Below the pieces are notes generated by a model. The model made no database searches, was not told the DNA's origin, and worked only from the letters and a program-made list of their open reading frames with translations. Source: an uncultured Planctomycetia bacterium (lineage in GTDB: Bacteria; Omnitrophota; Gorgyraeia; B26-G9). Taken from it: DNA of 64,000 nucleotides. The stretch covers positions 28,552-92,551 of the forward strand of contig CAYTGV010000001.1 in NCBI GenBank assembly GCA_964437495.1, read 5' to 3'. A program made the translations under genes and the position numbers. This document shows positions 4,013-53,705 of this stretch, one piece after another (positions within the stretch are counted from its first letter, which is position 1; the number at the start of each line of letters is the position of its first letter).

Positions 4013-4246
4013 TCATACCGCGATTAAACAGCTATCAATCTTCGGCTGATCAAATCCAATAATAACAGTACCATCTATATCAATTACAGACACCCCCATC
4101 TGACCAGAAAGTTTAATCATTTCCTCTGCTTTAGTTTTATCGATGGAAACATCAATTGATTAATATGCTATGCCTTTTGAAGAAAAATACTTTTTAGCCA
4201 TTGTACAGTAAAGACAAGTTGGCATTGAATAAATTTTCACCTCCAT
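4013..4246 (-). pseudogene. Glutaredoxin-like (NrdH/Grx thioredoxin-fold) gene with an in-frame TAA at 4160..4162
   Basis: A single frame reads MEVKIYSMPTCLYCTMAKKYFSSKGIAY-*-SIDVSIDKTKAEEMIKLSGQMGVSVIDIDGTVIIGFDQPKIDSCLIAV. It has the CxxC redox motif and Grx-family hallmarks (a C-terminal ...VIDIDG...GFD... block), and GGAG lies about 8 nt upstream of the ATG. Homologues usually have E or K where the stop falls. Confidence 0.55.
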
Positions 4247-4281
4247 ATATCACTCCTCTTCTAAAAGACATAAAACGAATA

Positions 4282-4764
4282 TTAATTTGTTATTTTTTTT
4301 CTAAACTCTGTCAATACTATGACATGCCTTTTTTCTTCTCTTATAATACTATCCAGCAACTCTTTCTTATCATCTAACACATATTCCTTTAATGCTGTGT
4401 AGACAAGTATTGATTCTTTTTCTATCTGTAATCCAAAATCCAAAGCCTCCAGAGTACTCGCAAACAATTCCTCTGTTTTTCTCTTTATTAACTCAGGGGT
4501 GAATATATAAGTCACAGCTATTGCTTCTAAATAAGCATCATAATCTCCCACACCAAATTCTTTAATGAAATAATCTCCAGAGCTCTCAAGCATCTTTTTA
4601 AATCTGCTTTGATGGCCTATTTCCTGCTCTTTTAAAAACTTCCAAACAGACTTTATTTTTTTGTCCTCTGCCTTTTCTTCAAGCTTAGCGTAAAGCTACT
4701 CGCCATTTTCCTCTACCTTCAAAGCAATATCAAGAATTTCCTGCGGACTCCAATTATTATTCAT
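4282..4764 (-). pseudogene. Ferritin-like / rubrerythrin-family diiron protein with an in-frame TAG at 4696..4698
   Basis: A single frame reads MNNNWSPQEILDIALKVEENGE-*-LYAKLEEKAEDKKIKSVWKFLKEQEIGHQSRFKKMLESSGDYF...EKRHVIVLTEF. It has two E..H diiron-type motifs. The track ORF 4282..4593 is only the part after the stop; same frame, no frameshift. Confidence 0.55.
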
Positions 4765-4774
4765 CTTTGCTCCT

Positions 4775-5953
4775 TTATCCGGATATTAACTGTTTTATTT
4801 TACTGACCACACCCTTTAGGCCCTCAAGATCACTCTCATCCGGAACAAACTGCATATAAATCCCATCTTCTATAATCTGCATACCTGCCTCTTTTAATCC
4901 CTCTTCAAGCTCTTTAAATCCTATCTTTGCCCAGCCATATGAACCAAAGCTAAGCGCAAACCTGTTTTTAGGCTTTAATCCCTTTAAGTAAGTCAGGAAT
5001 CCACCCATGCTCGGCAATATCTGATTATTAAGGATAGCACTTCCCAAAAGGACAACCTTTGATCTCATAACTTCTGTTATCGCATCTGAGAAATCCGATG
5101 TTTTTAAACTAAGCTTTACAACAGGAATACCTTCCCTGTCAAGCAAATCACCTAATTCAAAAGCAATCTTTTCCGTAGAATGCCACATAGTATCATAAAT
5201 AATGACCGCTCTGTTATCAGACTCGTAGTTTGCCCATTTTTTGTAAAGTTGTAATATTTTTTTTATATTTTCTTGTTTTTTCCAAATCAGTCCGTGAGAC
5301 GGACATATCATTTTAATATCCAGGGATTTTAAAGCCTCAAGCACCTTAAGAACCTGCGCTCCGTAAGGCATCACAATATTAGCATAATACTTTGCTGCTG
5401 CCTCAAAAACTATATCCGCTCCAACCTCATGGACATAACGCTCAGAGCTTGCATGATGCTGACCGAAAGCATCGTTAGGGAACAAGATCGAATCATCCGG
5501 CGAATAGGTTGCCATTGAATCAGGCCAATGCACCATGGGCATCAGAAAAAACTTCAATATCCTTCTGCCTATTTTTAGCTCATCGCCAGTATTGACAACT
5601 TTAAACTTCCAATCTTTCTTAAAATGCCTCTTTAGCCCCTTTTCCCCAGCCAGAGAACACACGACCTCTGCCTTAGGACAAAGCTCAAGCATCTTTTCAA
5701 TGCATCCAGAATGGTCCATTTCAGTATGATTTGAGATTATATACTCTATCTTCGAGGGATCAATAACCGCTTTGATCCTAGAGGCCATCTCATCAAAACC
5801 ATAATGCTTTACAGTATCTATCAATGTCGGCTTTTCATCAACAATAAGATAGGCATTATAAGTGGATCCAGTAGGAGTGGAATACCCGTGAAAATTACGC
5901 AGTTCCCAATCAATATCCCCAACCCAATAGATATCTTTTTTTATCTCTGTCAT
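4775..5953 (-). CDS. Flavodiiron protein (rubredoxin:oxygen oxidoreductase / FprA family)
   Basis: 392 aa with an N-terminal metallo-beta-lactamase-like diiron domain (HWPDSMATYSPDDSILFPNDAFGQHHAS) and a C-terminal flavodoxin-like domain. Confidence 0.9.
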   Translation of the reverse strand: MTEIKKDIYWVGDIDWELRNFHGYSTPTGSTYNAYLIVDEKPTLIDTVKHYGFDEMASRIKAVIDPSKIEYIISNHTEMDHSGCIEKMLELCPKAEVVCSLAGEKGLKRHFKKDWKFKVVNTGDELKIGRRILKFFLMPMVHWPDSMATYSPDDSILFPNDAFGQHHASSERYVHEVGADIVFEAAAKYYANIVMPYGAQVLKVLEALKSLDIKMICPSHGLIWKKQENIKKILQLYKKWANYESDNRAVIIYDTMWHSTEKIAFELGDLLDREGIPVVKLSLKTSDFSDAITEVMRSKVVLLGSAILNNQILPSMGGFLTYLKGLKPKNRFALSFGSYGWAKIGFKELEEGLKEAGMQIIEDGIYMQFVPDESDLEGLKGVVSKIKQLISG

Positions 5954-5981
5954 TTGAATTCCTCTTAAAAGTTTCTTTGGT

Positions 5982-6122
5982 TTATTTTACTTCCTTAAAC
6001 TGATCTTTGCCTACCCCGCAATCAGGACAAACCCAGTCGTCCGCAAGCGCCTCAAAAGCCACATTATTATTCTCTGCCGGGTCATAAATATATCCGCAAA
6101 CTATACATTCAAATTTTTTCAT
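5982..6122 (-). CDS. rub: Rubredoxin
   Basis: [19 protein letters not shown]...[19 protein letters not shown] has two CxxCG knuckles. Internal start of track ORF 5982..6206, with GGAGG upstream. Confidence 0.9.
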
Positions 6123-6136
6123 ATTTCCTCCTTTAA

Positions 6137-6457
6137 TTATTTTATCAAACCGCTTAACATGCTCACCAGCTTTTCCTTTGGGACCACCCCCACTGACTCT
6201 CCGCAAACCTGTCCCTTATTAAAAATCAAAACCGTGGGAATACTCATCACTCCATATCGAGTTGCTACATCAGGAGCATCATCAACATTCAATTTACAGA
6301 TCTTTACTTTTCCATTATATTCATTAGCCATTTCATCTATAAGCGGTGTTAATATACGACAGGGACTGCACCATTGGGCCCAAAAATCTATAAGCACCGG
6401 AATGTCTGATTTAATAACTTCTTGTTCAAAATTTTCTGTACTTAGCGCTAAAGCCAT
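6137..6457 (-). CDS. trxA: Thioredoxin (variant WCSPC active site)
   Basis: 106 aa with thioredoxin-fold signature ...[13 protein letters not shown]... and ...[14 protein letters not shown]... Confidence 0.85.
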
Positions 6458-6619
6458 TCTTTTGCTTCCTCCTTATTTTTAAGATTTTAGAACAAATTAA
6501 TATCCTATTTTGCCAGCTCATATATTTTATCTTCTATTAATTCAGCATCTTTTTCTTCTTCAATCAGCAAATTTAAAAACATTTCACGCGCAACAAGCTG
6601 TTCCTAATCCAGGCGCTGA

Positions 6620-6650
6620 TAAAGATCATGCGCCTGCCTATCCTTATGAG
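6620..6650 (-). terminator. Putative stem-loop terminator downstream of the SOR gene
   Basis: Inverted repeat caggcgc...gcgcctg with a T-run nearby on the minus strand, lying between the sor stop (6662) and the trx start (6457). Confidence 0.3.
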
Positions 6651-6661
6651 AATAGCCTTAT

Positions 6662-7057
6662 TTATACAACTGTTATTTTTTTTGTGCTTTCCCACAAACC
6701 GTGTATATTACAATAACTGATTGCAATCAAGCTACCTGATTTTTCTGTTTTTATAGTCAAATTTACTGATGGCTGTGTATATATACCGCTTGTATTAGCT
6801 CCCTGCGCCGATGCCCCATGTGAAGCTAGCTCTGTACGCGCGATTTGATATGGAAATTTCTCTCCATCTGCCAGAAAATATACTGAAATCCAAGCGATAT
6901 GATGCTCTGAAGTATTGGGATGCGCTATTTCTTTACCAACCGTTATATTAAAATCCAAAGCATCTCCCTTTTTGATATTATCTGCTGATTCTATTGCCGG
7001 CACATGCTTTTCTGTTTTCCAATCTGCACTTTGAACCAGATCTTTTGCAATGGTCAT
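6662..7057 (-). CDS. sor: Superoxide reductase, 1Fe neelaredoxin/desulfoferrodoxin class
   Basis: 131 aa with EKHVPAIE, HPNTSEHHIAWISVYF and CNIHGLWES motifs (the His4-Cys iron ligand pattern of SORs). Confidence 0.85.
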   Translation of the reverse strand: MTIAKDLVQSADWKTEKHVPAIESADNIKKGDALDFNITVGKEIAHPNTSEHHIAWISVYFLADGEKFPYQIARTELASHGASAQGANTSGIYTQPSVNLTIKTEKSGSLIAISYCNIHGLWESTKKITVV

Positions 7058-7073
7058 TTAATACCTCCTTTTG

Positions 7074-7577
7074 TTAGAACTTTTTGAACATTTCCTTTTT
7101 AACGCCGCAAATAGGGCAAAAATCCGGATATTCGTTTTCTGCTGTAAATCCGCAAACAGGACACACATAGAAATCTACTGAATCGATATCCTTATTCGCA
7201 TCTACAGCAACTTTTGTTTTCTTATACATAGTCTCATGGATTTTTTCAGCCTCAAGCGCATAATGAGCTGACCTTGCTGCATTTTTTTCCCCCTGCTTTT
7301 CAGCCTCAGCCAAATAGGCAGGATACATTTCCTCTACCTCAAAATGTTCTCCGCTTATAGCCACCGGCAGATTATCCACACTTGTTCCAATGCCGCCAAA
7401 AACTTTTAGATGATTGCCAGCGTGAACTCGCTCTGCATAGGCTATGGCCCGGAAAAGCCTGGCCACATTCAGTTTACCTTCTTTTTCTGCTATATCAGCG
7501 AATATAAGATATTTCATATGCGCCTGCGATTCTCCAGAAAAAGCATTTTGCAAATTTTGTTTCGTCATTTCATGCAT
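7074..7577 (-). CDS. rbr: Rubrerythrin
   Basis: 167 aa with an N-terminal ferritin-like diiron domain (E..H pairs) and a C-terminal rubredoxin-like CPVCG...CPICG. Confidence 0.9.
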   Translation of the reverse strand: MHEMTKQNLQNAFSGESQAHMKYLIFADIAEKEGKLNVARLFRAIAYAERVHAGNHLKVFGGIGTSVDNLPVAISGEHFEVEEMYPAYLAEAEKQGEKNAARSAHYALEAEKIHETMYKKTKVAVDANKDIDSVDFYVCPVCGFTAENEYPDFCPICGVKKEMFKKF

Positions 7578-7642
7578 AATTTTCTCCCTTCAATGAGCAT
7601 ATCACTTAAGGAACAAAGTAACTTAAGCGATATATGCGAATT

Positions 7643-7697
7643 AACCCCGCCATGGCGGGGTTGATCCCCCCGCCTGTTTTGCCCTTGCAAAACAGGC
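7643..7697 (-). terminator. Two tandem GC-rich hairpins between the regulator-reductase operon and rbr
   Basis: aaccccgccatggcggggtt is a perfect 20-nt palindrome at 7643..7662. gcctgttttgc-cctt-gcaaaacaggc is an 11-bp stem at 7672..7697. Both lie just 3' of the stop of gene 7716..8426. Confidence 0.5.
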
Positions 7698-7715
7698 AGA
7701 TATTATCACTACATT

Positions 7716-8426
7716 CTAATAACCTATGAAATTTTCCGCCATTATCCAATTTTTATCACAGCCTGATTCAACACATAAGTCTTTCATGGCCTTGACCATA
7801 ACCGGTGGACCGTAAATAAAAAATCGCCTTGCCGTTAAATCCTGCAACCGGCCGCTTAACAATTCGCCAGATATATGCCCATGCACGCATATATCATCTT
7901 TAGGCTCGCAATCAGTAACCGTATATACAACCTGCATATTTTCATTAAGCCTGTTCCAGGAATCAAGTTCCCGCCTAAAGGCAATCTCCTCCTTATTTCG
8001 ATTCGAATAAAAAAGAATTATGTCTATACCCAGTTTTTTTTCCATAATATATTCCAGAATAGAAATAACCGGGGTAATGCCAATGCCTCCGATAAGAAAT
8101 CCTATCTTTTTATAATCTTCTTTAAATATACAGTTTCCCATCGGCCCCTGCATTAAAAGACTATCTCCTAGCTTTAATCCTTTCAGTCTTGCCGAAAAAG
8201 AACTCTCGCTCAAGCGCTTTGTAACCTCAACATAGTCCTTCTCAGGTGAGACTGAAAAAGAAAGATATTTATTAAGATCTTTATTCTGCAGAGCTTTATC
8301 ATCAAAAACAACTTTCACAAACTGCCCGGGCGCAAAAGTAATCTTTTCACTGGTTTTAAAACAAAAACTCTCCACGCTCGGAGTCCTTTTAATCCTTTGA
8401 ATTAGTTCTGCGGAAAATGTATTCAA
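7716..8426 (-). CDS. FNR-like FAD/NAD(P)-binding oxidoreductase (ferredoxin-NADP reductase family), candidate NAD(P)H:rubredoxin-side reductase
   Basis: 236 aa with an FAD-binding barrel (QFVKVVF...YLSFSVSP) and an NAD-binding Rossmann domain (GFLIGGIGITPV). Overlaps the upstream regulator gene by 4 bp. Confidence 0.7.
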   Translation of the reverse strand: MNTFSAELIQRIKRTPSVESFCFKTSEKITFAPGQFVKVVFDDKALQNKDLNKYLSFSVSPEKDYVEVTKRLSESSFSARLKGLKLGDSLLMQGPMGNCIFKEDYKKIGFLIGGIGITPVISILEYIMEKKLGIDIILFYSNRNKEEIAFRRELDSWNRLNENMQVVYTVTDCEPKDDICVHGHISGELLSGRLQDLTARRFFIYGPPVMVKAMKDLCVESGCDKNWIMAENFIGY

Positions 8427-8866
8427 CTCTCAGCTCTTCCTTTATTTTCACTATTAACAGCCCCAACCCGGCACTCACGGCAAATACCGTAAAAATATCC
8501 CTGAAGTTCCTGGATCACATGCCCGTCTACCTCGGATCTCTGCAGAGTCAGACAGAGAGGTATATCAACATCAAAAACTTTTTTGCATTTTTTACAATAG
8601 AAATGATGGTGAGCATCCATTCTGCTATCATAGCATGATTTATCAAAATTAATTCTTATCTCTCTCGCCAAATTTTTCTTACCGTAAAGCTCTAAAATAG
8701 TATAAATTGTAGCCAAAGAAATAGCCGGAAATTTATCTTTCATTTTCCTGTAAATCTCATCAACAGTCAAGTGCTTATTTGTATTGCACAATAGATCATA
8801 AACTCCCAGCCTTTGAGGAGTAATACGAATGCCTTTTTCTTTAAGTATTGCGATTTTATCTTTCAT
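8423..8866 (-). CDS. Fur-family transcriptional regulator (PerR-like peroxide sensor)
   Basis: 147 aa with an N-terminal winged helix and C-terminal HHHFYCKKC...CRECR metal sites. First gene of the oxidative-stress island, with a Fur/Per box upstream. Confidence 0.8.
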   Translation of the reverse strand: MKDKIAILKEKGIRITPQRLGVYDLLCNTNKHLTVDEIYRKMKDKFPAISLATIYTILELYGKKNLAREIRINFDKSCYDSRMDAHHHFYCKKCKKVFDVDIPLCLTLQRSEVDGHVIQELQGYFYGICRECRVGAVNSENKGRAES

Positions 8867-8915
8867 AGAAATATAATGTAATATATTGCTTAGGGCTTGT
8901 CAATAATTATTTTTA

Positions 8916-8934
8916 TATAATAATCATTATTATA
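8916..8934. promoter_or_regulatory. Fur/PerR-box-like 9-1-9 inverted repeat upstream of the Fur-family gene
   Basis: TATAATAAT-C-ATTATTATA sits about 32-50 nt upstream of ATG 8866. It matches the Fur box core (GATAATGATAATCATTATC) and the Per box (TTATAATNATTATAA). Confidence 0.6.
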
Positions 8935-9043
8935 AGAAGAACTTCCATGTAGCTTGCCCCCTAGACATAACGATCTGAAAAAAAAGAAGTTATGTATTTA
9001 AGATTTTATTTCAATTTAAATAAATATTTATTTTGCTTGTTCA

Positions 9044-9072
9044 TTGATATTCTCTTTAACGTATGGTATACT
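9044..9072 (+). promoter_or_regulatory. Sigma70-like promoter for the 9144 gene
   Basis: TTGATA-17 nt-TATACT, followed by a leader of about 70 nt. Confidence 0.45.
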
Positions 9073-9143
9073 TTATTACTCATTTTTCATATCCTTTTCT
9101 CAGGGGATTAAAGGGCAAAATTAAACATTAAAAACGGGGACAT

Positions 9144-12100
9144 ATGAAATACAAAAAAAACACATACAAAAAACTGCTTCTAATTATACTAGTCAACTCT
9201 TTGATTTTTTCTCATTATTTTATTGGGCAAGTTTTGGCTGAGCAGGCCTCCGACACTTATATAAAAAAATACACTAGGATAGATAGTAATGACCTTCTTT
9301 CCCCCCAAAGCAATATTGAAAAGTTAAGGGCAGGCAGCTTTTTCGAAAAAAGCCTCACTTCTGAGTTTACCGGTTCAAGACTGTCAAATAAAAAGCCAAG
9401 AAAATTAGCTGATTTAAAACTGGCCAATAAAAACCTTTTTCCAATCCCGTTCCCATTCCCTTCCGCACAATTTGATCGAGGACAATCAACTCCGGAATGG
9501 CTTGAGTCATATATTATGTCAAGAGTACTTCTAGAGCTAAGTTTCAAGCACAACAACTTGATACCTTTAAAAGCAGCCTTAGAAATTGCCCCGGAAGTTT
9601 TCGAAAATTACGGGCTAAAAGCAAATATAAAAAAAATAATCAAGCTTATTAATGGATTACAAAAAAGAGCTTTAATCTCAAATGCTGACGGTCTTGATTT
9701 CAGCTATAACCACCAGCAGATTATTCAGATTAATGTTCCTTTAAGAACTTTGGCCGTCTGGTCTGATGCCTTTAATTTTATCCGCAGTGATATTAAAAAC
9801 GCTCTTGCTTCTAGCCACTATGATTTCCTTACCATAATTGAGGAATATGCCCTCACTAGTGAATTGTGGCCTGCTCATCCAATTGAATCCCGGTATCCGG
9901 TACTAAGAGCCATTGCCAGTTTAACAGCAGAGGAACAAAAGAAACTCATAGCTATATTACTAAATAATGAACGGCTAAGAACCTATCCGCTCATAGATTC
10001 CACAATACTCATGCTGGACTTCGAGGAAGGAAAAAAAGAGTGGCTGCAAAAATATGCTCCTCAATTAGTAAATCGAAACCTTTATCTTATTGCCGCGGAA
10101 ATATCATTACTTGCCGGCGGCTTAGGAAGAGTGATGCAGTATCACGGAACAAATATGCATAAACTCGGAGCCAATGTGCTTTATGTAGAACCGTATTATC
10201 CCCTAACCAGAGATAAAACTGGATCCGTACAGCCTTTGGACTACTCAGGCTTGGCTATACCCGTTAAAGATTTGAAAAAAATCGACTACGATTTTACCAC
10301 AATAGTTCAAAATGGAAATATTTCTTTTGAAGTCTTTGTCGGGAAAAACACACTCGGCATAACCGTTTATCTGATCAGAGATAAAAAATCCGAATATGTT
10401 AATATCCTGTATGAATACGGCACTCAGGAATCTCCTGCCTCAAATTATGAATTTACCGAGTTTTTCACCAAAGCAACTCTGGAACTTATTAAATATTTGG
10501 AAGTAAAAGAACGAAAAAAATTAGGCAACAGATATAAACCTCCGCTTGTAGATGCAAACGACGGACAGGCTCTGCCCTTAAATGCTTTTAGAAGAATTTT
10601 TTATTTAGATAAGGAAAAAATAATCACAGAAGGCACAAACAAAAGAGATATAGATTTAGCACATGAGGTGTTAACTCAGGCAATTTTTAACGGTACAACT
10701 CATACTTACCGAAACCGCGGTATCATCAATGACTTTAATTACGGCCGTCATTTTTTAAGTAATGCAGGGATCCCAGAAGAATATCTATGGCTGTTTCTTC
10801 GCAAAGAAATCGATGGAACCCTTCTTTGGGATATGACTAGCGGCGGGCTTAGAAGTTCTGATACAAGCAAAGCTGTTTCCGCAATTCATGCCCATGAAAT
10901 GAATGCCCTTGATCCGATGATAAAACTTATCGGCATTACCAACGGCGATGACCGCGTGTATTCTTCCGCTTATTTCAGAGAGGCACTAAAAATTCTGGGA
11001 GTATCCGACTTTGAACATCCCACTGCACAGCAGGTTGCAAAAGCAAAAGCTATCTGCAAAAAAAATATCGGGCTTGACCCTAATCAAATGGTCATCTCCT
11101 ATTCCGGCAGGCTGGTGCAGGAAAAGGCAGGCCGAAACCGTGCTTTGACAGATGAAAACATCGAAGCTCTTGTAAAAGAAGGAATACAGGTACTTATCTA
11201 CGGCAATGTGCAGCCTTATGAAGAAAGCATTGCTATCAAAGAATCTCTTGAAAGACTACAGGAACGCTTATCAAACTCCGGATATAAAGGCAGGCTTATT
11301 TTTAAGCCAAAATTCAATATTGATGAACAAAGACAGCTTTTAGCTGCTACAGATATTCAGATCCAGGATTCTGACCGTTATACCGGAGCTGCCGAATATA
11401 CTGAAGCAGATGTTACCGCTAACGGCGGAATTCAAATGGGCGCTCCATTCTGGGAAGGAATAATTCAAAAACAAGGTGCTGTGATAAATTCAAAAACAAT
11501 GACCGGCAATACCCTTGTACCGGCCGATACAAACAGTAGCTCTTTTTTAAACTCTTTTAACTGGGCACATAAGAAATTCCTAGCTCCAAACAATGAACTT
11601 AGCGTTTATCAGGCCTCTTCTATCGAATTAAGCAGAGTTCTGGAGGCCTCTTTGACAGCTGCCGAATACTTACGCTTCTGGAATAATGCCTTCTGGGAGC
11701 AAAAAAATAAAATGCCAGCTCCGAAACCACGCGTTGCCGGAGAAGTCAACATCCTTGATTTATCCCTTATTTGCCATAGCAACTCAAAATCAGCCTCGAT
11801 TTTACGGCAAGTAAACAACTTCAGCTTGGATTATTCTCCCCAAAAAGGTGACGAATTGGAATTTACCGTTACTATAGACCGCCAGGCTTTTGATTCTCTG
11901 CATTATGGGCAAAAACATCTTGTCTCCTTTGACTTGGTTAGCGCTCAGCTTGTAAATGACTATGGACTCAGAGTACCTTTAAGCATCAAAAAAGTAGCCG
12001 AAATAACTGTAACCTTTAATGCTTTTTTACCTAAAAACCTGCCTCTGCCTTTTAATGGAATTATCGAAATAACTTCCGGATTATGGAAAAGCGCACGCAG

Positions 12101-42009: not shown

Positions 42010-42690
42010 TTATCGCTTCCTATTGCGTAAAAAAGAAGCAAACACAAATCCCCCTGTGAAACCACCTATATACGCCCACCAGGCTACCTTAACCAGGCCT
42101 TGCCTTGAACCCGGCAAAGTAAAAAATCCATTTAAGAACTGGATAAGAAACCATATACCTAAAAAGAAATATACCGGCATCTCCGCCACAGTCCAAAAAA
42201 TAAACACCGAAAACAAAATTATTATTTTTGCCCCAGAAAAAACAACAAATACGCTCCAGGGACACCAGAAATACATCCGCTTGCCCCCAAAGCAGGCACA
42301 TTAGAATGAATATTTAAATATATGCGTAAAATTTCCAACAAGACCACACAAAATATAAAAGATTAAAAATTTAAAGTGCCCTAATTTATCTTCGGCATTA
42401 TCTCCCAATATCCACAAATACCACATATTCCTCAGTCAATGAAGCCAGCCGGCATGCAGAAAAAGTGAACTTATCAAAGATATTATTCCGGCAATAGCCT
42501 GCGATAATGTCCAGGCCCGCATATTTAAAAAAGCCTCAGGAACTACCGCAAATCTAGAAATCACTTCTTTAAGTTACGATCCAAGCAAAATTTCCTTTAA
42601 AAATATATATATATGCGATTATCAGCAAAATAGTTACCAGCGCCAACCTTCTTGCCTTAGCCTTATCGCGCAAAGGTATCAATATGAAAC
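42010..42690 (-). pseudogene. Decayed rhomboid-family intramembrane protease gene (frameshift plus in-frame TGA and TAA)
   Basis: One frame from 42573 to 42010 reads ...SLFLHAGWLH-*(TGA 42436..42438)-LRNMWYLWILGDNAEDKLGHFKFLIFYILCGLVGNF...-*(TAA 42301..42303)-...VFSGAKIII...VAWWAYIGGFTGGFVF. It carries the rhomboid H..N, GxSG-like and AHxxG motifs. The TM1-like piece RRLALVTILLIIAYIYIF sits upstream in another frame. Track ORF 42010..42276 is the C-terminal fragment. Confidence 0.55.
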
Positions 42691-43348
42691 TCCTTACTAA
42701 TATTTAGCTTAGAATAATATTTTAACAAATTGCTAGATATTCTGCAACACAATTAACTTTTTATAATTAATCTGTTTTTTTAAAGACCCGTCAAAATAGA
42801 AAAATGCTGTAACCTATTAATAATAAAATTGTTATGAATTCAAAAAAGCCTTTATTTTTAAACCCTGGCTTTACTTATTTAATAAAACTCTATTTCTACA
42901 TAAAAAAAAGGAGCTTTTAATACTTACTCTTAAACAAATCCTTGTATGCCTACAAGATCTATGGATCACGACATTAAAACTGTTGATTTTAGAAAATCCA
43001 CATTCAAAAACACAAAAATAAGCTTAAATTAAGAGATCATAAAGCTGCTTGGACAAAAATTCAGCATCAAAAGAGTTCTAACCGCAATTTTTTCAGCCAT
43101 GGGCAAAAGTGTACAATATATAAATAAAGTTCCCCGCGCATTAAAATTAATGAAAAACAGAAATATAAATCGCCAAGGAAATGGGATATTATAGAATCTT
43201 CACTGTATCACCTCAATATAGAGAATAAGGTCTATGCCTTATTAATGGCAAGAAATGCAGGCCATTTACAAAAAGCATCAGTATTAAAGCCCCATAACTA
43301 TGTTTTTAACATAATATACAACAAGACATCTGCCGCCAGAAACTTAGT

Positions 43349-45521: not shown

Positions 45522-45550
45522 TTGCATTAATTTATTTTTGTGCTTATAAT
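45522..45550 (+). promoter_or_regulatory. Sigma70-like promoter of the ferredoxin gene
   Basis: TTGCAT-17 nt-TATAAT; AAGGAGGA lies 4 nt before the ATG at 45581. Confidence 0.45.
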
Positions 45551-45580
45551 AAAATTAATCATGAACTTAAGGAGGATAGC

Positions 45581-45769
45581 ATGAAAGCAATTATAGACAC
45601 AGAAGCTTGTGTAGGATGTGGATTATGCGCTAATATGTGCGCAGAGGTATACCAGATGGAAGACGACAAAGCAATTGTTATCGGCAATTCCATTCCAGAG
45701 GAACTCTTGGATTCAGCAAAAGAAGCAGCCACAAGCTGCCCTGTAGAAGCAATAAAAATAGAGGGTTAA
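45581..45769 (+). CDS. 4Fe-4S ferredoxin (small monocluster type)
   Basis: MKAIIDTEACVGCGLCANMCAEVYQ...ATSCPVEAIKIEG, 62 aa; internal start within track ORF 45434..45769. Confidence 0.8.
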   Translation: MKAIIDTEACVGCGLCANMCAEVYQMEDDKAIVIGNSIPEELLDSAKEAATSCPVEAIKIEG

Positions 45770-45790
45770 TTTTTTTAACCCTCTATTTTA
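45761..45790 (+). terminator. Hairpin plus T-run after the ferredoxin gene
   Basis: gagggttaa-ttttt-ttaaccctc followed by tatttta. Confidence 0.5.
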
Positions 45791-45830
45791 TAAATACCCT
45801 GATCTCTTGATTTATAATAACTCTTTAAAT

Positions 45831-46637
45831 CTAATATTTTAGGCCAATTAAATATTCCAAATCATCCCATGGTTTACGACTCCCTTGGATAGCCACGATA
45901 AATTCCTTATTCCCCTTGCTGAATGCACCAAGAAAACAGTGTTTTGCCGCTTGAGTATAGCCTGTCTTTCCAATAAGATTATTGGTTGTACGCCAAAGAA
46001 ACTTATTATGATTGCGTAATTTAATTACTTTACCGTCACTGCCGGATATACTGGCATACTTCTTCCCCAATATTTTAGTCAATGCCGGATATTCAAGACA
46101 TTTCTTCATAAATAAAGCCAGGTCATAAGCAGTAGAATACTGTCGTTTTTTATGTTCAGGCAATCCTGTGGCATTGAGGAAAAAGCTGTTTTTCGCTCCC
46201 CATGATTTTGCCTGTTTATTCATTAATAATGAGAACTTAAACTCAGTTTCCGCCATAGCCTCAGCCAAAACAACCCCGGCATCATTAGCCGAACTCATCA
46301 AAAAACACAGAAGCAGATCCTTAACCTTATATTTTTTCTTTTCGCTTAAATACACCTTACTCGGAGCTATCCCCGCAGCCCTTTTACTGATAATTAAACT
46401 CCTTTTAAAATCCAGATTATCAGCGGCCATAACTGCAGTCAGCACTTTTACCGTACTTGCCGCAGGCATCCTTAAAGAGGAGTTTTTTTCAAACAGAACA
46501 GCTCCGCTATGTGCATCCATAATAATAGCAGATCTTGCCGTAAGTCCTGCACTTTGCTTAGAAAGCCCTACCCTTGCAAAAAACTGGCCCATAATAATTA
46601 CGGCTAAAAAGCATATTATATATTTAGTGAATTTCAT
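45831..46637 (-). CDS. D-alanyl-D-alanine carboxypeptidase (S11 penicillin-binding protein)
   Basis: Signal peptide, SxxK motif (ASTVK) and SxN-like motif; 268 aa. Confidence 0.8.
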   Translation of the reverse strand: MKFTKYIICFLAVIIMGQFFARVGLSKQSAGLTARSAIIMDAHSGAVLFEKNSSLRMPAASTVKVLTAVMAADNLDFKRSLIISKRAAGIAPSKVYLSEKKKYKVKDLLLCFLMSSANDAGVVLAEAMAETEFKFSLLMNKQAKSWGAKNSFFLNATGLPEHKKRQYSTAYDLALFMKKCLEYPALTKILGKKYASISGSDGKVIKLRNHNKFLWRTTNNLIGKTGYTQAAKHCFLGAFSKGNKEFIVAIQGSRKPWDDLEYLIGLKY

Positions 46638-46638
46638 T

Positions 46639-47058
46639 TCATTTTCCTAAAAAAGTTAGGACAATCTTTCTGTCTCTTACTCGAGTATCGAATTCTGCCA
46701 AAACAACCTGCTGCCAGGTTCCCAAAAGCAGTTTCCCGTCATTAAAAGGTACAATCATCCCGGATCCCTGAAGCGCTGCCCGAACATGGCTAAAGCCATT
46801 GGCATCATTCCAGGTCTCATTATGCAAATAGTGTTTTTCACTTGGCGCAATCCGTTCATACAAATCCCTCATGTCTGAGATCATGCCTGATTCATACTCA
46901 AAAGATGTTATTGCCGCAGTTGATCCGACAACAAACACATTCATCAAGCCTTCGCTAAGAAATGACTGCTGCAAAGCCTCCTGAAGATCACTGGTAATAT
47001 CAATTAAATCTCCGGCACCCTTTGTTTTATGCTTTAGAATCTGCGTTATAATTTCCAT
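46639..47058 (-). CDS. YjbQ/UPF0047 family protein
   Basis: 139 aa; ...GLMNVFVVGSTAAITS...NGFSHVRAAL...LLLGTWQQVVLAEFD... is conserved UPF0047 sequence. Confidence 0.7.
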   Translation of the reverse strand: MEIITQILKHKTKGAGDLIDITSDLQEALQQSFLSEGLMNVFVVGSTAAITSFEYESGMISDMRDLYERIAPSEKHYLHNETWNDANGFSHVRAALQGSGMIVPFNDGKLLLGTWQQVVLAEFDTRVRDRKIVLTFLGK

Positions 47059-47121
47059 AGTACAATTCTATCCCCAACAACTTGATCATGAAATTTTATG
47101 TTTTGTCATTAATAATATTCA

Positions 47122-47150
47122 TTGACGAAAATTGTTTATCAAGTTATAAT
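47122..47150 (+). promoter_or_regulatory. Sigma70 promoter of the pyrE-kdsB operon
   Basis: TTGACG-17 nt-TATAAT. Confidence 0.5.
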
Positions 47151-47196
47151 TTTTATAAATATTTTAACATAGATTTATCTTAACTAGGAGAAAAAA

Positions 47197-47754
47197 GTGA
47201 ACAAGAAAATATCTAAGCAAAAAAAGCAACTTTTTACCATTCTCAAAAAAAATTCATTTAAACGCAAACGCGTCATTCTCTCCAGCGGGAAAGCCAGTAA
47301 TTTTTACTTTGACGGAAGAATAAGCTCTCTTATAAGCTCAGGCGCTTATCTTATTGCAGAGATACTTCTGGATATGATAAAATATGATAAAATTGACGCG
47401 ATTGGTGGACTTACACTCGGAGCTGATCCTATAATCGGAGCAACAGTTGCCATAAGTTTTGGGAAAAGCAGGCCGATTAATGGTTTCATTGTAAGAAAAG
47501 ATGAAAAAAAACACGGCATGAAAAGAAAAATTGAAGGGCCGGCGCTGAAGAAATCAAGCAGAGTTGTAATTATCGATGATGTAGTTACAACCGGTTCATC
47601 AACGATTCAAGCTATTAAATCCGTGCAGGAAATCGGATGCAAAATTGTCCGCGTAATCGCAGTAGTTGACAGAAACGAAGGCGCAAAAGAGAATATTGAA
47701 AAATGCAAATGTAAGCTTGAATCGATTTTTACAAAAGCTGACTTCGGAGTTTAA
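47197..47754 (+). CDS. pyrE: Orotate phosphoribosyltransferase
   Basis: PRPP-binding motif VVIIDDVVTTGSS; 185 aa; GTG start. Confidence 0.8.
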   Translation: MNKKISKQKKQLFTILKKNSFKRKRVILSSGKASNFYFDGRISSLISSGAYLIAEILLDMIKYDKIDAIGGLTLGADPIIGATVAISFGKSRPINGFIVRKDEKKHGMKRKIEGPALKKSSRVVIIDDVVTTGSSTIQAIKSVQEIGCKIVRVIAVVDRNEGAKENIEKCKCKLESIFTKADFGV

Positions 47755-47768
47755 CTTAAGGATCTATT

Positions 47769-48512
47769 ATGGATGTTATTGGTATAATACCCGCGCGTTA
47801 TGGTTCAACCAGGCTTGCTGCAAAAGCACTTGCTAACATATTGGGCAAGCCTATGATACAGCATATATATGAAAGAGCCAAGGAAGCTTCTGTCTTAGAT
47901 GAAGTTATTGTGGCTACAGATGATGAAAGGATAAAAAAGGCCGTAGACTCTTTTGGAGGAAAAGCTTTACTTACATCTAAAGAGCACACATCGGGAACAG
48001 AACGGCTTACTGAAGTAGTTTTCGACATGGATGTGAAGGTTATTGTTAATATCCAAGGCGATGAGCCTCTTATTCACCCATCCATGATTAATGATGTTGC
48101 TTATGCCATACTCGAAAATCAAAATATCGTCATGGCAACCCTAAAACAACTTATCACTGATATAAATGAGTTTAATAATCCAAATGTAGTAAAGGTAATC
48201 ACGGATAAAAATAACTTTGCTATTTATTTTTCCAGGTCTCCTCTGCCAAACATATTAAGGAAAAAAGAAGGATTAGATATACCGATTTACAAGCATGTCG
48301 GGATTTATGCTTACACAAAAGACTTTTTACTTACTTTCAAAGGATTGAGATCCTCAAAGCTAGAGCTTGCAGAATCACTGGAGCAGCTAAGAGCAATAGA
48401 GAACGGCTATAAAATAAAAGTGCTGGAAACCAGACACGAAACTATCAGCATAGATACGCAGGAAGATCTCGATAAGGTCATAGACTATCTTAAGAATTCA
48501 ATTAATAGCTAA
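47769..48512 (+). CDS. kdsB: 3-deoxy-manno-octulosonate cytidylyltransferase (CMP-KDO synthetase)
   Basis: MDVIGIIPARYGSTRLAAKALANILGKPMIQHIYERA... is the canonical KdsB N-terminus; its presence implies LPS/KDO. Confidence 0.9.
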   Translation: MDVIGIIPARYGSTRLAAKALANILGKPMIQHIYERAKEASVLDEVIVATDDERIKKAVDSFGGKALLTSKEHTSGTERLTEVVFDMDVKVIVNIQGDEPLIHPSMINDVAYAILENQNIVMATLKQLITDINEFNNPNVVKVITDKNNFAIYFSRSPLPNILRKKEGLDIPIYKHVGIYAYTKDFLLTFKGLRSSKLELAESLEQLRAIENGYKIKVLETRHETISIDTQEDLDKVIDYLKNSINS

Positions 48513-49945
48513 ATAGACTGATTTAGCCACTCTTGCTGTGTCTGCTCAAGAAGCTGTTCTGCTTTCACCTTATCTTCAAGCGGAACATACAGATAATAAC
48601 CGGACGCAATGGTTCGAATCGGCAAGCCCCAGCTAAAATGGGACGGTTTAATCTCATTCATAATGCTTCTGCTTCTAAGACATGCCTTCTTCACCTCTGC
48701 CTCAGTTTCATCAATGGCAATATCTAAAAGGGTCCATTGTTTTGAAGGAAGGCTGCAGATTTTACGGAAAAATTTCAGTTGTCTTTTTATGTCATGGTAT
48801 ACTCCGACCAGAACTATCAAACCAAAAGCACCAAAAATACCTGCACTCATAAAGGAAATCTTAAGGATCAACGGTAAAGCAACTGGAAGGTAATAAATCG
48901 CTACAAATAATATCACGCTTAATGTTATCGTTTTAGTAATGGAAGCATTCAAATAATCTATTATCTTTTTATTTTGGCTTTCCTTTATTTTGCACTTATG
49001 CGCCAAAATGAGCTCATAAAATCTTCTGGGCCGATAGATTACTTTTGCGTAAACAAGCGTAAAGAAAATTATAGCAATTAAAACCATTGCAAAAGAAGCA
49101 AGATCAAACGAAACCTCAAAATAAGAGAATACTGTCTCTGTAATAATCAAAGGCCATACCCCCATCCATACCGGCCTTATTGAAATATGAAAATGCTCAT
49201 TATTTTCAGTACACATATCTATTCTATTTACAATTCTAGTAACTTTTCTGGCAAAATAAATAAAAGCTATTGTTATAACACTGAAAATAAACAAATGTTT
49301 CAAGCCTATCAGATTCCTGCCCCAGAATACAACCAATTGATCCCCGGCAAAAATAAATCTTAATATCACTTCTACGGCAAAAATCATACCCACTCCATTA
49401 CCAAAACCATATTTATTTATAACCTGCGTAAGCATTATAAAAATAAGCGTCATTACACAAAGAGAAAGAATGGTAGTTATCTGAAAAGGAAGTCCGGCAA
49501 ATTTCAGCAGGTTAATATCCGGGAATTGATTCAAAAGCTGCAAATCCATACTTGCCTGATATCCGGAAAACACACTTAAAATCAGGGCAATAATTACAGT
49601 CCCATACATCATTTTAGAACGCCCATGTTGTTCATGAAAAAACTTTCTATTTAACCCAGGCACAAGAAAAGCTATTATTTGAAGCATTACACAGGCATTA
49701 ATAAAAGGCATTATCCCTAAGGAACTTACCGATACATTACGCAGTTTTCCAATATGCACAAGAGCCATCAAATCCATTAAGCCCCCGCCTTGCGTCCTAA
49801 TATGCTGCTTATAGAGCTCAGCCAATGCGCTTAAATCAACCCCTGGCAGAGGCAAAAAATAAAGCACACGTACAAGCACAAGAACAGCTATGGTAACTAA
49901 AATCCTCTTCCATATGCCACATTCATCACTTTTTTTTATCGTCAT
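48509..49945 (-). CDS. Divergent SecY-family translocon protein with a C-terminal cytoplasmic DUF2007-like domain
   Basis: Aligns with the SecY N-terminal half: ...LPLPGVDLSALAELYKQ...SLGIMPFINACVMLQIIAFLVPGL...GRSKMMYGT... and ...GFGNGVGMIFA.... The last ~90 aa (WTLLDIAIDETEAEVKKACLRS...YYLYVPLEDKVKAEQLLEQ) match the DUF2007 pattern. Not in a ribosomal-protein (spc) operon context. Confidence 0.6.
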   Translation of the reverse strand: MTIKKSDECGIWKRILVTIAVLVLVRVLYFLPLPGVDLSALAELYKQHIRTQGGGLMDLMALVHIGKLRNVSVSSLGIMPFINACVMLQIIAFLVPGLNRKFFHEQHGRSKMMYGTVIIALILSVFSGYQASMDLQLLNQFPDINLLKFAGLPFQITTILSLCVMTLIFIMLTQVINKYGFGNGVGMIFAVEVILRFIFAGDQLVVFWGRNLIGLKHLFIFSVITIAFIYFARKVTRIVNRIDMCTENNEHFHISIRPVWMGVWPLIITETVFSYFEVSFDLASFAMVLIAIIFFTLVYAKVIYRPRRFYELILAHKCKIKESQNKKIIDYLNASITKTITLSVILFVAIYYLPVALPLILKISFMSAGIFGAFGLIVLVGVYHDIKRQLKFFRKICSLPSKQWTLLDIAIDETEAEVKKACLRSRSIMNEIKPSHFSWGLPIRTIASGYYLYVPLEDKVKAEQLLEQTQQEWLNQSI

Positions 49946-49969
49946 CTTATCCCACCCTTCAAAAGAAGA

Positions 49970-50815
49970 TTAAAATTCTCCGTTTACTATCTGGGCATCG
50001 CCCGCTAATTTCTTCACCCCTTGAATCCTGCGTTTTAACTTATTGTCTCTGGGATAAAGTTCTAAAATTTTCTTATAATAATGAATGCTTTGTTCATAAT
50101 CCTTTATCCTTTCAAAAGAAGCCGCGAGTAGTGTCAGAACATGCCTTTTTTCGATATTATTGACCTCCCTTGGCAGAAAAAGATAAGCCTGTCTGAAATA
50201 GGCTATGGACTTGACATAATCATTATTCATAATAAAGTAAATATCACCTATTTGCGAATAAATTTCCCAGGCTTTGGGGTTATATCTCAATCCATTCTTC
50301 AAGAATCTAATTGCCTTATCAGACTTACCCAGGCGTATGCCCAGCCAATAACCACCCACAATATATGCCTTAATATAATATGGATCCGCTAATACAGCAA
50401 GTTCAAACCAAGGCATTATCTCGGCACTTTTGGCATTATTAAGATGTTGAACCGGCTTGTAAGAAATAGCCTTGTTTAAGCGTGAAAAAATATCCTGATC
50501 ATCATTCACAGGCTGCCAAATTTCATTATTCTGCTTAGAGACATGCTCGTGGGGTACTTCACCTTCTAGACAAGAATGTCCTGCATTGTGCTTTGGATGC
50601 GAAGTCCCGCCGTGAAAATATCTATCTGCTTTTAAATACAAAATTGCCGCTATACTGCTGCGCAGCTGTCCAAACATCTTATAGAAAATATCGTTTTGAC
50701 AAATAAGGGAATTATTATTTGCCATAAAAAAAACATCAAGGTGTGCTGAACTACAAACTAAAATCAATACCACGATGATAACAATTAAGCTAGAATGGAA
50801 TTTGCCTAAAGCCAT
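49970..50815 (-). CDS. Membrane-anchored TPR-repeat protein
   Basis: 281 aa with an N-terminal hydrophobic anchor and TPR repeats; last gene of the ABC transporter operon. Confidence 0.5.
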   Translation of the reverse strand: MALGKFHSSLIVIIVVLILVCSSAHLDVFFMANNNSLICQNDIFYKMFGQLRSSIAAILYLKADRYFHGGTSHPKHNAGHSCLEGEVPHEHVSKQNNEIWQPVNDDQDIFSRLNKAISYKPVQHLNNAKSAEIMPWFELAVLADPYYIKAYIVGGYWLGIRLGKSDKAIRFLKNGLRYNPKAWEIYSQIGDIYFIMNNDYVKSIAYFRQAYLFLPREVNNIEKRHVLTLLAASFERIKDYEQSIHYYKKILELYPRDNKLKRRIQGVKKLAGDAQIVNGEF

Positions 50816-51564
50816 CTCTTTTGAAACCTCTTAAAAACAAAAAAAAGCAAGCAAGCCACATAAAGAGTCGCATACCCAAATATAGACAACATAACCCACA
50901 GCGGTAATGGACTCCATTCATATATAAGTCGATGGCGCAAATCAAAAAATTCAAAATGAGGCAAGAGATAATAAGCAATTTCCCCCAGAATAGGCAGGCG
51001 GTAAAATGCTTCTCGCATATTAGCGCCAAACCAACTCATTAAAAAGAAAATAGTATATGACAAAGTAACTGTAGTGGAAAATGTACAAAATACGGAAAGG
51101 CATATAGTCATTGCATTCAAAACAGCAAGCATAATAATACCACCCATAAATACCTGTGTATAAAGCAGCCAATCTCCTTGTCCTTGTTTAAGTAAGCTTA
51201 TAACCGTAAACAGCAAAAAAAATAAACCGAAACTAATCCAGCTTATAAACAAACTTCCCAAAAATTTACCGGCAATCACATGAACTCTCTTTATCGGTTT
51301 TGCCAAAAGAGGATATATTGTCTTTCCGCTTATCTCTTCTAACATAAGTCTTGCCGCATTAGGTACTGCAATAATTATGGAAAATAAAAATACAAGCCCC
51401 AGTCCTATTTCATTCATATATCTATAAATATGCTTAATTTCAAAAAAAGCGGCATTTGCTAGATAGACCATTAAAATAAGCAGCATTGTAATAAACACAT
51501 ATATATCTTTTTTACGGAATATTTCACGCATTATATTTATTGCGATCAGTTTAACTATCAACAT
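50806..51564 (-). CDS. ABC-2-type transporter permease
   Basis: 252 aa, about 6 TM; translationally coupled to the ATPase. Confidence 0.55.
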   Translation of the reverse strand: MLIVKLIAINIMREIFRKKDIYVFITMLLILMVYLANAAFFEIKHIYRYMNEIGLGLVFLFSIIIAVPNAARLMLEEISGKTIYPLLAKPIKRVHVIAGKFLGSLFISWISFGLFFLLFTVISLLKQGQGDWLLYTQVFMGGIIMLAVLNAMTICLSVFCTFSTTVTLSYTIFFLMSWFGANMREAFYRLPILGEIAYYLLPHFEFFDLRHRLIYEWSPLPLWVMLSIFGYATLYVACLLFFVFKRFQKRWL

Positions 51565-52304
51565 AGGTCACCTTTTATTATAATGTCTATAAAATACCTT
51601 TCTAGACTCATATCATCTCCCTTTTGCTTAAAAATATCCTCTACCTTATCTGTTTTTACCAGGACACCTTTATTTATAATTCCAATCCTGTCACAGACAA
51701 GCTCAACTTCTGAAAGCTCATGAGAGGAGAAAAAAATTGTTTTCCCTTTTGCCTTTAACCCTTTAATTATCTCACGTACGCTGCTTCTCGCCAGAGGATC
51801 AAGTCCGCTTGTAGGTTCATCAAAAATTAGCAAGTCAGGATCATTTATTAGGGATTGGGCCAGGCTTATCTTTTGCATCATTCCTTTAGAAAAATTTTTC
51901 ATCAATACATTTGCTTCTGCCTCCATACCAACAAGACTTAGCAAGTTGTCAATTTTTTTATCCGCAGTCTTTTTTCTAAAGCCAAAAAATCCGGCATACA
52001 TTCTAAGCAGTTCCCGTGGGGTTAAATACCAGTAATAATTAGCAATCTCCGGCATATAGCCCATACGTGAACGCACAGAGTAATCAGAAGAATCTTGTCC
52101 AAAAATGCTTATTTGACCCGCGGCTACAGGAAGAAAGTTAAAGATTGATTTTATGGTAGTAGTTTTGCCAGCACCATTAGGGCCAAGAAAGCCAAACACT
52201 TCTCCAGAGACAATCTTAAGCGTAAGATGAGCAATTGCCTTTTTCAGGAAATTGCTTCCTTTATAAGTAACAGATAAATCATTCAATTCCAACGCATATT
52301 TCAT
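51558..52304 (-). CDS. ABC transporter ATP-binding protein
   Basis: Walker A GPNGAGKTT, a signature-like FSKGMMQK, and Walker B LLIFDEPTSGLD. Confidence 0.85.
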   Translation of the reverse strand: MKYALELNDLSVTYKGSNFLKKAIAHLTLKIVSGEVFGFLGPNGAGKTTTIKSIFNFLPVAAGQISIFGQDSSDYSVRSRMGYMPEIANYYWYLTPRELLRMYAGFFGFRKKTADKKIDNLLSLVGMEAEANVLMKNFSKGMMQKISLAQSLINDPDLLIFDEPTSGLDPLARSSVREIIKGLKAKGKTIFFSSHELSEVELVCDRIGIINKGVLVKTDKVEDIFKQKGDDMSLERYFIDIIIKGDLC

Positions 52305-52334
52305 GAGCTTATTATACCAAAAAAAAATTGATTA

Positions 52335-53705
52335 TTAAAGCTGCTTGAAAAACTTATCCTCAAATATCGTCCCTTGATTAAGAACAAGATCAGGATCTAT
52401 TGTCTTTTTAATAATAGCCATTTCACGCAACCCTTTAACGCCAAGCATAATTTTAAGATATTTCCGTTTTAATTTACCGATTCCATGTTCTGCTGAAACA
52501 GTTCCTCCCAATCTAAGGCCTTCCTTGACAAACTCAAGGTAAAGATTTTTAGCCCTTTGAAAATCGTTTTTAGTTTTCGGCATTAAATTAACGTAAAGAT
52601 GATTTTCCCCGATATGGTCGAATACGCAATATTGCATACTGCTGTTTTCAAGTGCGCGTTCATAGAAATCAAACATCCCCGGAAAATGCCTATCTGAAAC
52701 CGCAATATCAGTATTAATCTTCGAAAACCCGTTTTCTTTAACTCTTTCATTTATAAAAACCGGCAAATCGTAGCGCATTGCATTAATAGGAATCTAGCGG
52801 TATTTCGGCCTGAGCATATCAAGAGAGAAGACGTCAAAATATTCAATACAACTAGCATCAATATCGTTATTTTTAGCAGATTTTCGGCTGGTATATGTTA
52901 GTTTTTTAGATTAAAAACAAATTCCAGTGCCTGCATTTTGGTTTTAAAAAAGACTACTCCGTTAAACTCCTGTTCCGGCAATTCACAGAGGATTACTTTG
53001 ATCTTACTTATCATACCTAAAATACCCTCACAACCAATAAACAAGTCAATCAGATCACTACCGGAAAAGATATAATAATCGACAGAATTTTTAACTTTAG
53101 GCAGGCGGTAGCCGGGCAAAGCACAGAATAATGGCTTGTTTTTAATAGGAATATAGAGCCTGTTTTTAACAAAACAATTACCTCTTTGGATATCAAGTAA
53201 TTGCCCTGTGGACAGGATAATATACAGGCCAAGGATATGCTTTCTTGTTGAACCGTATTTAAAACCTTTAGCCCCGGAGGCATTGGTAGCTACGGTTCCC
53301 CCCAAGATATGCATTTTTTTCTGTAGGATCAAGTAAATAGGTGAGTCCGTATTTAGCAGCCTCCAGGCATAACTGCTCAATGCTCACGCCAGGCTCTATA
53401 ACTGCAAATCCCCCAGGCTTGTCCGGAAATTTTTTAATATCAACTATTTTGTTTAGTTTTTCAGTTGAAATTATTGAACCACTCAAGGAAATTCTACCTC
53501 CCACAATACCGGTTTATGCTTCGAATATAGTCAGGGGCATTTTTCCAGAAGCAGCTTCTTTAAAATAAGCAATTGCCTCATATTCAGTTTTAGGAAAAAC
53601 TATTTCCCGGGCATTTCCACAACTCAACCCAGAACTATCCTGTAAATAATCTTTGAATGTATCTATATTCTTTTTTCGTAACATAATTAACCTAATTACC
53701 TTCAT
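52335..53705 (-). pseudogene. FAD-linked oxidase (GlcD / D-lactate dehydrogenase family) gene broken into at least 4 pieces
   Basis: Track ORFs 53514..53705, 53268..53504, 52898..53380 and 52335..52778 together span an FAD_binding_4 domain (...GGNxxTNASGAKGFKYG...) and the C-terminal ...SAEHGIGKLK...DPDLVLNQG. Lesions: an in-frame TAA at 53514..53516 (...LTIFEA*TGIVGGRISL), a frame change inside a G6 homopolymer at about 53299..53304, and a stop/frame break in 52779..52897. Confidence 0.6.

Follow-up and report, generated by a model that had tools for sequence, protein, structure and literature searches.

Six genes in a 64-kb stretch of DNA from an uncultivated Omnitrophota bacterium (GenBank contig CAYTGV010000001.1 of assembly GCA_964437495.1, positions 28,552 to 92,551; hereafter, the window) are interrupted by premature stop codons, frameshifts and deletions, and we consider it highly probable (roughly 90%) that these loci are genuine pseudogenes carried by a nearly clonal population. 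The affected genes encode a glutaredoxin-like protein (Grx), a ferritin-like protein, a rhomboid protease, a GlcD-like FAD-linked oxidase, an ARMT1-like damage-control phosphatase and the C-terminal part of a coiled-coil protein (Table 1). An earlier note on this DNA had described four genes as broken by in-frame stops, and this description was borne out: all stop codons are as claimed, and Pfam homology spans the lesions. Its list of damage proved correct for the stops and incomplete otherwise, having missed further lesions in the FAD-oxidase and rhomboid genes, the decayed 3' end of the coiled-coil gene and the ARMT1-like relic; the latter two were found by querying the intergenic DNA of the window with the open reading frames (ORFs) of relatives.

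The window has a GC content of ~37%, and its genes are mostly tightly packed on the minus strand. Its nearest relative in a species-level genome collection is the Candidatus Omnitrophota metagenome-assembled genome (MAG) L010 (JAZDHG010000001.1; ~76% nucleotide identity), and the top protein matches of three different window genes were all to proteins from Omnitrophota/Omnitrophica MAGs. Exact-protein look-ups located the same sequence in five assemblies, namely, ENA ERZ27316756 (a 147-kb contig), ENA ERZ27317826, JGI 3300031645, Logan SRR8862235 and an NCBI record (a 217-kb contig); no publication was found under the sample or assembly accessions. The relatives used for comparison are referred to below as genome A (GCA_054039915.1), genome B (L099/L107, GCA_030627865.1) and genome C (L010); distances suggest that A and C group together, with the window lineage roughly outside them and B nearby.

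Table 1. Decayed genes of the window and of two sister genomes.
Feature	Position	Strand	Supporting match or comparison
Glutaredoxin-like (YruB-family) pseudogene	4013..4246	-	PF00462 5e-14 on conceptual translation
Ferritin-like / rubrerythrin-family pseudogene	4282..4764	-	PF02915 2e-9
Rhomboid protease pseudogene	42010..42682	-	PF01694 5e-27
ARMT1-like damage-control phosphatase relic (PF01937), putative	42911..43285	+	Three collinear tblastn matches and synteny
FAD-linked oxidase (GlcD / D-lactate-dehydrogenase-like) pseudogene	52335..53684	-	PF01565 (FAD_binding_4) 8e-22 and PF02913 (FAD-oxidase_C) 1e-24
Decaying 3' end (~95 codons) of coiled-coil gene	54945..55212	-	Orthologs of 640 aa (L010) and 642 aa (L103)
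Sister-genome pseudogenes	L099 7378-7905, 353-981, 5213-5572; L010 9234-9916, 14796-15253		

Lesions and intact orthologs of the six genes

Homology extends across the lesions in all cases, as seen from Pfam matches of the conceptual translations and from tblastn comparisons with intact orthologs, and a syntenic intact ortholog was found for each of the six genes. The glutaredoxin-like gene carries a single in-frame TAA at positions 4160-4162 (codon 29), where orthologs encode Glu or Gln, implying a GAA or CAA to TAA change. In addition, its active site CPYC has become CLYC, and the cis-proline of the thioredoxin fold has been replaced (GVP to GVS). Among 31 sites invariant in nine orthologs, the glutaredoxin-like sequence bears 5 private substitutions, compared with 0 to 2 in any relative and 5 of 175 in the neighbouring flavodiiron protein (FDP) used as a control. 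The gene matches the YruB family (TIGR02196) slightly below the cutoff (84.4 bits versus 88.55) and, like members of that family, which occur in rubredoxin/oxidative-stress operons, it sits in such an operon; the ~19 intact orthologs lie downstream of an FDP gene and a ferritin-like gene. A metagenome scan with FDP yielded 80 loci, ~15-20 of which contain the FDP, ferritin-like and glutaredoxin-like trio with both small genes intact.

The ferritin-like gene is interrupted by one in-frame TAG at positions 4696-4698, corresponding to an AAG (Lys) to TAG change; in the intact orthologs of 155-160 amino acids (aa), this position is mostly K, with S or Q in three. The gene is otherwise whole and keeps all of its E and ExxH ligand motifs. 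Its 103-aa fragment is on record from NCBI, JGI, Logan and ENA; missing from it are helix 1, a portion of helix 2 and the E and ExxH ligands that these contribute. Because there are no excess substitutions and all ligand motifs are retained in the gene, its TAG is the youngest of the lesions. An 11-nucleotide (nt) gap at 4276-4286, around the natural stop codon of the ferritin-like gene, is left unbridged by three assemblies. At another metagenomic locus (L018, 7207-7353), a ferritin-like gene matches over its first 49 residues only and no glutaredoxin-like gene was found downstream, with both genes intact at the sister locus (L021); this pattern may represent another independent loss.

The rhomboid gene is more extensively damaged. 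Nucleotide alignment to intact orthologs identified two stops (GAA to TAA at 42574-42576 and TTA to TGA at 42436-42438) and three frameshifting deletions (2 nt at 42615, 2 nt at 42316 and 1 nt at 42235), and the catalytic His has been replaced by Tyr (CAT to TAT, AHIGG to AYIGG). The TTG start codon is natural, since it is common to the relatives. The orthologs are intact, 225 aa long and 62-67% identical, and in L099-L102 and L104 they have the same CcdA/DsbD gene as neighbour and an unchanged gene order. Next to the rhomboid pseudogene, the 666-bp spacer separating it from the GDSL gene contains the putative ARMT1-like relic, which appears heavily eroded, with several stops and frame changes and ~450 nt lost. 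Compared by tblastn with the ortholog of L103/L104, which is intact and 286 aa long, it gives three collinear matches (E values of 9e-6, 2e-3 and 3e-3); that ortholog (NF040824, 4e-40) occupies the same position in the same orientation between the GDSL and rhomboid genes. Six-frame translations of 42683-43348, the region holding the relic, gave no match in a Pfam scan.

In the FAD-oxidase gene, nucleotide alignment revealed two stops (GGA to TAA at 53514-53516 and CAA to TAG at 52794-52796), a 1-nt insertion near 53300 and a 1-nt deletion near 52912, both shifting the frame, and two in-frame losses, one of a single codon (3 nt) at 53135 and the other a clean 150-nt deletion at 52790. The motif GHIGENHLH reads DHIGENHLY. 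The ortholog P0121 is intact (500 aa) and lies in the fully syntenic locus L103, with the gene order PMT_2, DUF362, PNP, coiled-coil gene, FliW, CsrA, 78-aa ORF, FAD-oxidase, ABC, ABC2, TPR and SecY. A trio of ABC ATPase, ABC-2 permease and TPR genes (49970-52304) occurs in both the window and L103 but not in L010 (~9955-9971), where a FAD-oxidase relic abuts secY; the FAD-oxidase and the ABC/ABC-2/TPR transporter may form one dispensable module.

The coiled-coil gene is decaying at its 3' end. Two adjacent codons (GAA AAA) have become a tandem TAA TAA at 55207-55212, followed by three 1-nt deletions at 55112, 55088 and 54957, and identity to the orthologs remains 85-89% over the last 46 codons. 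The upstream part of the gene stays open as a 545-aa ORF (55210-56847).

These lesions are reproducible across three to four assemblies per gene. All contigs recovered from ERZ27316756, ERZ27317826, 3300031645 and SRR8862235 are 100% identical to the window across every lesion (contigs L109-L112 for the glutaredoxin-like gene, L001-L003 for the ferritin-like gene, L004-L007 for the rhomboid gene, and L007 and L008 for both the FAD-oxidase and coiled-coil genes), and the NCBI record carries identical fragments. Over 20.7 kb, the two ENA samples differ at one position, a G/T single-nucleotide polymorphism (SNP) at 42790 in relic DNA, and because of this SNP the two samples cannot be the same read set. 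Logan contig L006 and JGI contig L005 end beside it, at 42789 and 42793, respectively. More generally, contigs of the other assemblies break at or near 42790, 4276-4286 and ~50685, the first two of these sites lying in decaying DNA.

The rest of the sampled region is in good order. The block at 13-42 kb, encoding functions in haem biosynthesis and cytochrome c maturation, PurH, FolC, MnmE, DprA and others, is intact and colinear with relatives and contains no pseudogenes. The 10 kb past the window end (64-74 kb; GlmM, CdaA, FolP, FtsH and others) consists of tightly packed full-length gene calls and shows no pseudogenes or fragment series, as judged from gene calls without a relative for comparison. 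Comparison with orthologs in genomes A or B was possible for 38 genes, and these match in length and in alignment coverage. Of ~80 genes within the ~79 kb sampled, 6 are decayed, which is a rather high local density for a bacterium, though from a small sample.

Relaxed constraint and gene loss in related genomes

To quantify constraint, we took codons identical in two sister genomes and, for those differing in the window by a single nucleotide, counted nonsynonymous and synonymous changes (N:S). The rhomboid gene has an N:S of 18:25 (0.72), whereas the pooled counts of 28 control genes are 261:881 (0.30; Fisher p=0.009). Relaxed constraint is visible in the glutaredoxin-like and rhomboid genes, appears as a trend in the FAD-oxidase gene and leaves no sign in the ferritin-like gene. 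Since the elevations in N:S are modest, the inactivations are young relative to species divergence. Among the indels, deletions strongly predominate, with 9 small or medium deletions plus the loss in the putative ARMT1-like relic against 1 insertion.

Sister genomes have decayed genes of their own, among them genes different from those broken in the window. Genome A retains all of these genes intact over ~52 kb. In genome B (L099), the NAPRTase gene has one stop and is cut short after residue 176 but is still 85% identical, and nth has a frameshift and 2 stops, accompanied by a second nth-like relic; a corresponding nth-like relic was sought in the window, and none was found. In genome C (L010), the FAD-oxidase relic carries lesions wholly different from those of the window, including a ~1-kb deletion; its ABC, ABC2 and TPR neighbours are missing; and nth has lost its start codon and acquired a frameshift. 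Because genome A is intact, the losses of the FAD-oxidase in the window lineage and C were separate events, as were those of nth in B and C.

We infer that the decay results from selection having been relaxed in connection with the reduced-genome lifestyle that characterises the phylum. Under the proposed scenario, accessory genes, here two oxidative-stress helpers, the rhomboid protease, the GlcD-like FAD oxidase, the damage-control phosphatase and the coiled-coil C-terminal domain, would come under relaxed (or negative) selection. The first hit in each gene would be a point nonsense mutation, after which small deletions would build up, several of them in short repeats, and larger deletions would follow and in the end erase the gene. 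The loci could then be arranged by putative age, from the youngest, the ferritin-like gene, through the coiled-coil 3' end, the glutaredoxin-like gene, and the rhomboid and FAD-oxidase genes, to the ARMT1-like relic. In the same scenario, none of the fragments would still be functional.

Several points weigh against this interpretation. The pseudogene fraction covers ~79 kb only rather than the whole genome. The ferritin-like gene has one stop and no sign of relaxed constraint (2 of 36 private changes, which are conservative and within the range of the relatives), and its non-functionality is deduced solely from the loss of helix 1. For the FAD-oxidase gene, N:S is 14:30 (0.47) versus 114:457 (0.25) in controls, a trend only (p=0.08). 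The putative ARMT1-like relic is recognised from weak matches plus synteny. Protein distances compared among three taxa, with genomes A and D, place the window lineage as the outgroup (control RR-HD ratio 2.73) and so speak neither for nor against relaxed constraint. Finally, it is uncertain that the read sets behind the four assemblies are fully independent, and, the lesions being known from assemblies rather than from read frequencies, intact alleles may persist at low frequency.

Alternative explanations

Loss of these genes might have been adaptive rather than neutral, that is, favoured by selection against costly or deleterious products or under dependence on a host or community. The parallel losses of the FAD-oxidase and of nth, each in two lineages, and the concomitant absence of the neighbouring ABC, ABC2 and TPR genes from L010 are compatible with this possibility, but parallel loss is equally expected once a function has become dispensable. 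Furthermore, the genes carry multiple, scattered lesions of the usual mutational types, with no sign of a sweep and no recurrent identical mutation, and we regard adaptive inactivation as unlikely.

The two genes with single stops, encoding the ferritin-like and glutaredoxin-like proteins, might alternatively be not yet dead, the stops being segregating null alleles or the truncated product or low-level readthrough preserving some function. The retention of every ligand motif and the lack of excess private substitutions in the ferritin-like gene fit this scenario, as does the polymorphic 11-nt stretch between the two genes that remains unjoined in three assemblies. However, the same stops are present in all covering assemblies, the glutaredoxin-like protein has also lost the proline of its CPYC motif and its cis-proline, and the ferritin-like fragment is without helix 1, part of helix 2 and their ligands. 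On balance, survival of either gene appears improbable.

Recoding, whether by codon reassignment, insertion of selenocysteine or pyrrolysine, readthrough or programmed frameshifting, would have to keep all of these genes working, which we consider extremely improbable. The intact genes of the window end in all three stop codons, as the earlier note had stated (36 in TAA, 15 in TAG and 13 in TGA, out of 64), and in-frame premature stops are absent from these ~64 genes. The eight premature stops found in ancestral frames also comprise all three types: the 5 TAA codons replace E/Q, E, G, E and K, the 2 TAG codons K and Q, and the single TGA L. Hence, stop-codon reassignment fails on both counts, as each of the three stops terminates intact genes and the in-frame stops align to varied residues with no shared identity, and the genetic code is standard. 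Although the ferritin-like TAG stands in the place of Lys, Rfam detected only 3 tRNAs in the whole window, and a suppressor tRNA was not among them. The glutaredoxin-like sequence is weakly similar to UXX-star glutaredoxin-like selenoprotein families (NF041212, 57 bits; cutoff 66), and its natural TGA precedes two further codons and a TAA (TGA-TCA-AGA-TAA, 4007-4015). Yet the lone premature TGA of the window replaces Leu (TTA) rather than Cys or selenocysteine, the disabling stop in the glutaredoxin-like gene is, unlike in UXX-star proteins, a TAA at codon 29 and not a C-terminal TGA, and the gene ends in TAA or TAG in 16 of 20 relatives, so that TGA-X-X-stop is not conserved. A selenoprotein was accordingly rejected as a candidate, with TGA-X-X-TAA absent in 19 of the 20 relatives (L045 has it) and the NF041212 score under the cutoff, although no search was made for a selenocysteine insertion sequence (SECIS); the UXX-star reading of the C-terminus (TGA-S-R-TAA) was judged to reflect chance, most relatives ending in TAA. 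Programmed ribosomal frameshifting of the prfB or dnaX type resembles the situation here in that the frame changes within homologous coding sequence. It was rejected as well: there are several frame changes per gene, stops and deletions occur alongside them, no slippery site is conserved, and wherever a window gene shifts frame, its orthologs in genomes A and B do not.

The known bacterial code variants offer a further comparison. In code 25, UGA encodes Gly (Gracilibacteria/Absconditabacteria), and in code 4, it encodes Trp (Mollicutes). As in those bacteria, in-frame stops occur here inside recognisable genes, in this case of a metagenome-derived bacterium; unlike in them, three stop types are involved, the replaced residues vary, frameshifts accompany the stops and only a few accessory genes are affected. 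The conclusion of the earlier note that the genes are decaying rather than recoded is thus upheld by the syntenic intact orthologs, the variety of replaced residues, the frameshifts and deletions, the loss of essential residues and the raised N:S of the rhomboid gene.

Its other suggestion, that systematic base-calling problems lie behind the stops, or more broadly that sequencing or assembly errors produced the stops and frameshifts, merits hardly any credence: the sequence does derive from a metagenome and short runs or repeats occur close to some indels (a TA-repeat at ~42615, G- and A-runs near 53300 and 52912), but we reject such an artefact because all lesions are 100% identical across four datasets from different samples and assemblers, with matching NCBI fragments, because deletions of 2, 3 and 150 nt and two-step codon changes (GGA to TAA, CAA to TAG) are atypical of errors, and because ~40 kb of adjacent housekeeping genes are free of any lesion.

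Neighbouring elements and wider context

The neighbourhood of the FAD-oxidase and coiled-coil pseudogenes contains several other features. A 78-aa ORF on the plus strand (53823-54059), located between csrA and the FAD-oxidase pseudogene, has 70-76% aa identity to its counterparts in L103 and L010 and no family match, and is probably a real small gene. A 478-aa SecY homolog on the minus strand (48509-49945; PF00344, 8e-27) lies between the TPR/ABC cluster and kdsB/pyrE rather than in a ribosomal-protein operon; this placement is kept in the relatives, and the genome scan gave weak, odd matches to Woesearchaeota. Upstream of the coiled-coil, fliW and csrA genes, a noncoding stretch of ~490 nt (56848-57341, minus strand) shows 84% column identity with L103 and L010. 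It comprises a promoter (TTGACA-N17-CATAAT), a G-rich (AGGGG/AGGA) structured region of ~240 nt and an intrinsic terminator. From three sequences only, RNAalifold predicted 79 pairs, with compensatory changes in 11. No Rfam match was obtained for 56800-57400 even at a permissive threshold of E<=1, and a six-frame Pfam scan of 56848-57341 gave none either. The element is a candidate for a new small RNA or regulatory leader; any connection with CsrA is speculative.

Pseudogenes in genomes undergoing reductive evolution are familiar from Mycobacterium leprae, Sodalis glossinidius, Shigella, Salmonella Typhi and Rickettsia. The decay described here resembles that in such genomes in its course, which begins with nonsense mutations and short indels that shift the frame and proceeds to larger deletions, in the kinds of gene affected (accessory, stress-defence and repair), in the bias of indels toward deletion, in the sparing of housekeeping genes and in that lineages lose different, and sometimes the same, genes. 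Unlike in those cases, the organism is an environmental member of the Omnitrophota without a demonstrated host, the local density of pseudogenes (~6/80) is far lower than in the extreme examples, and there is no expansion of insertion sequence (IS) elements in the window. The six pseudogenes are therefore a new example of a known process, a modest and confirmatory finding with no new mechanism, to which the parallel, lineage-specific decay adds some value.

Genomes of Omnitrophota are reported to be reduced (0.86-3.2 Mb; PMC10066038), and the phylum is also reported to combine reduced genomes with host-dependent traits; the decay observed in the window is consistent with these reduced genomes. 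Pseudogenes are not mentioned in the phylum-wide genome papers PMC10066038 and bioRxiv 10.64898/2026.06.07.730766. For annotation, the loci should be flagged as pseudogenes, as their fragments of 103, 56, 72, 138, 147 and 88 aa now stand as separate proteins in public gene calls.

Beyond the individual loci, sister genomes at different stages of decay provide direct evidence of ongoing gene loss in at least one Omnitrophota clade and of which functions are dispensable there. A tentative extension, to which we give somewhat less than even odds, is that the clade is in active reductive evolution, with accessory genes of the same kinds inactivated time and again, and independently, in closely related species; in this extended scenario, the kinds inactivated would be the FAD-oxidase (twice), DNA repair by nth (twice), NAD salvage by NAPRTase and oxidative-stress helpers. 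Such active reduction may result from a small effective population or from a nanobacterial lifestyle, dependent on hosts or prey, that was adopted recently. If this is true, the clade would serve as a natural time series in which the origin of the phylum's small genomes can be followed.

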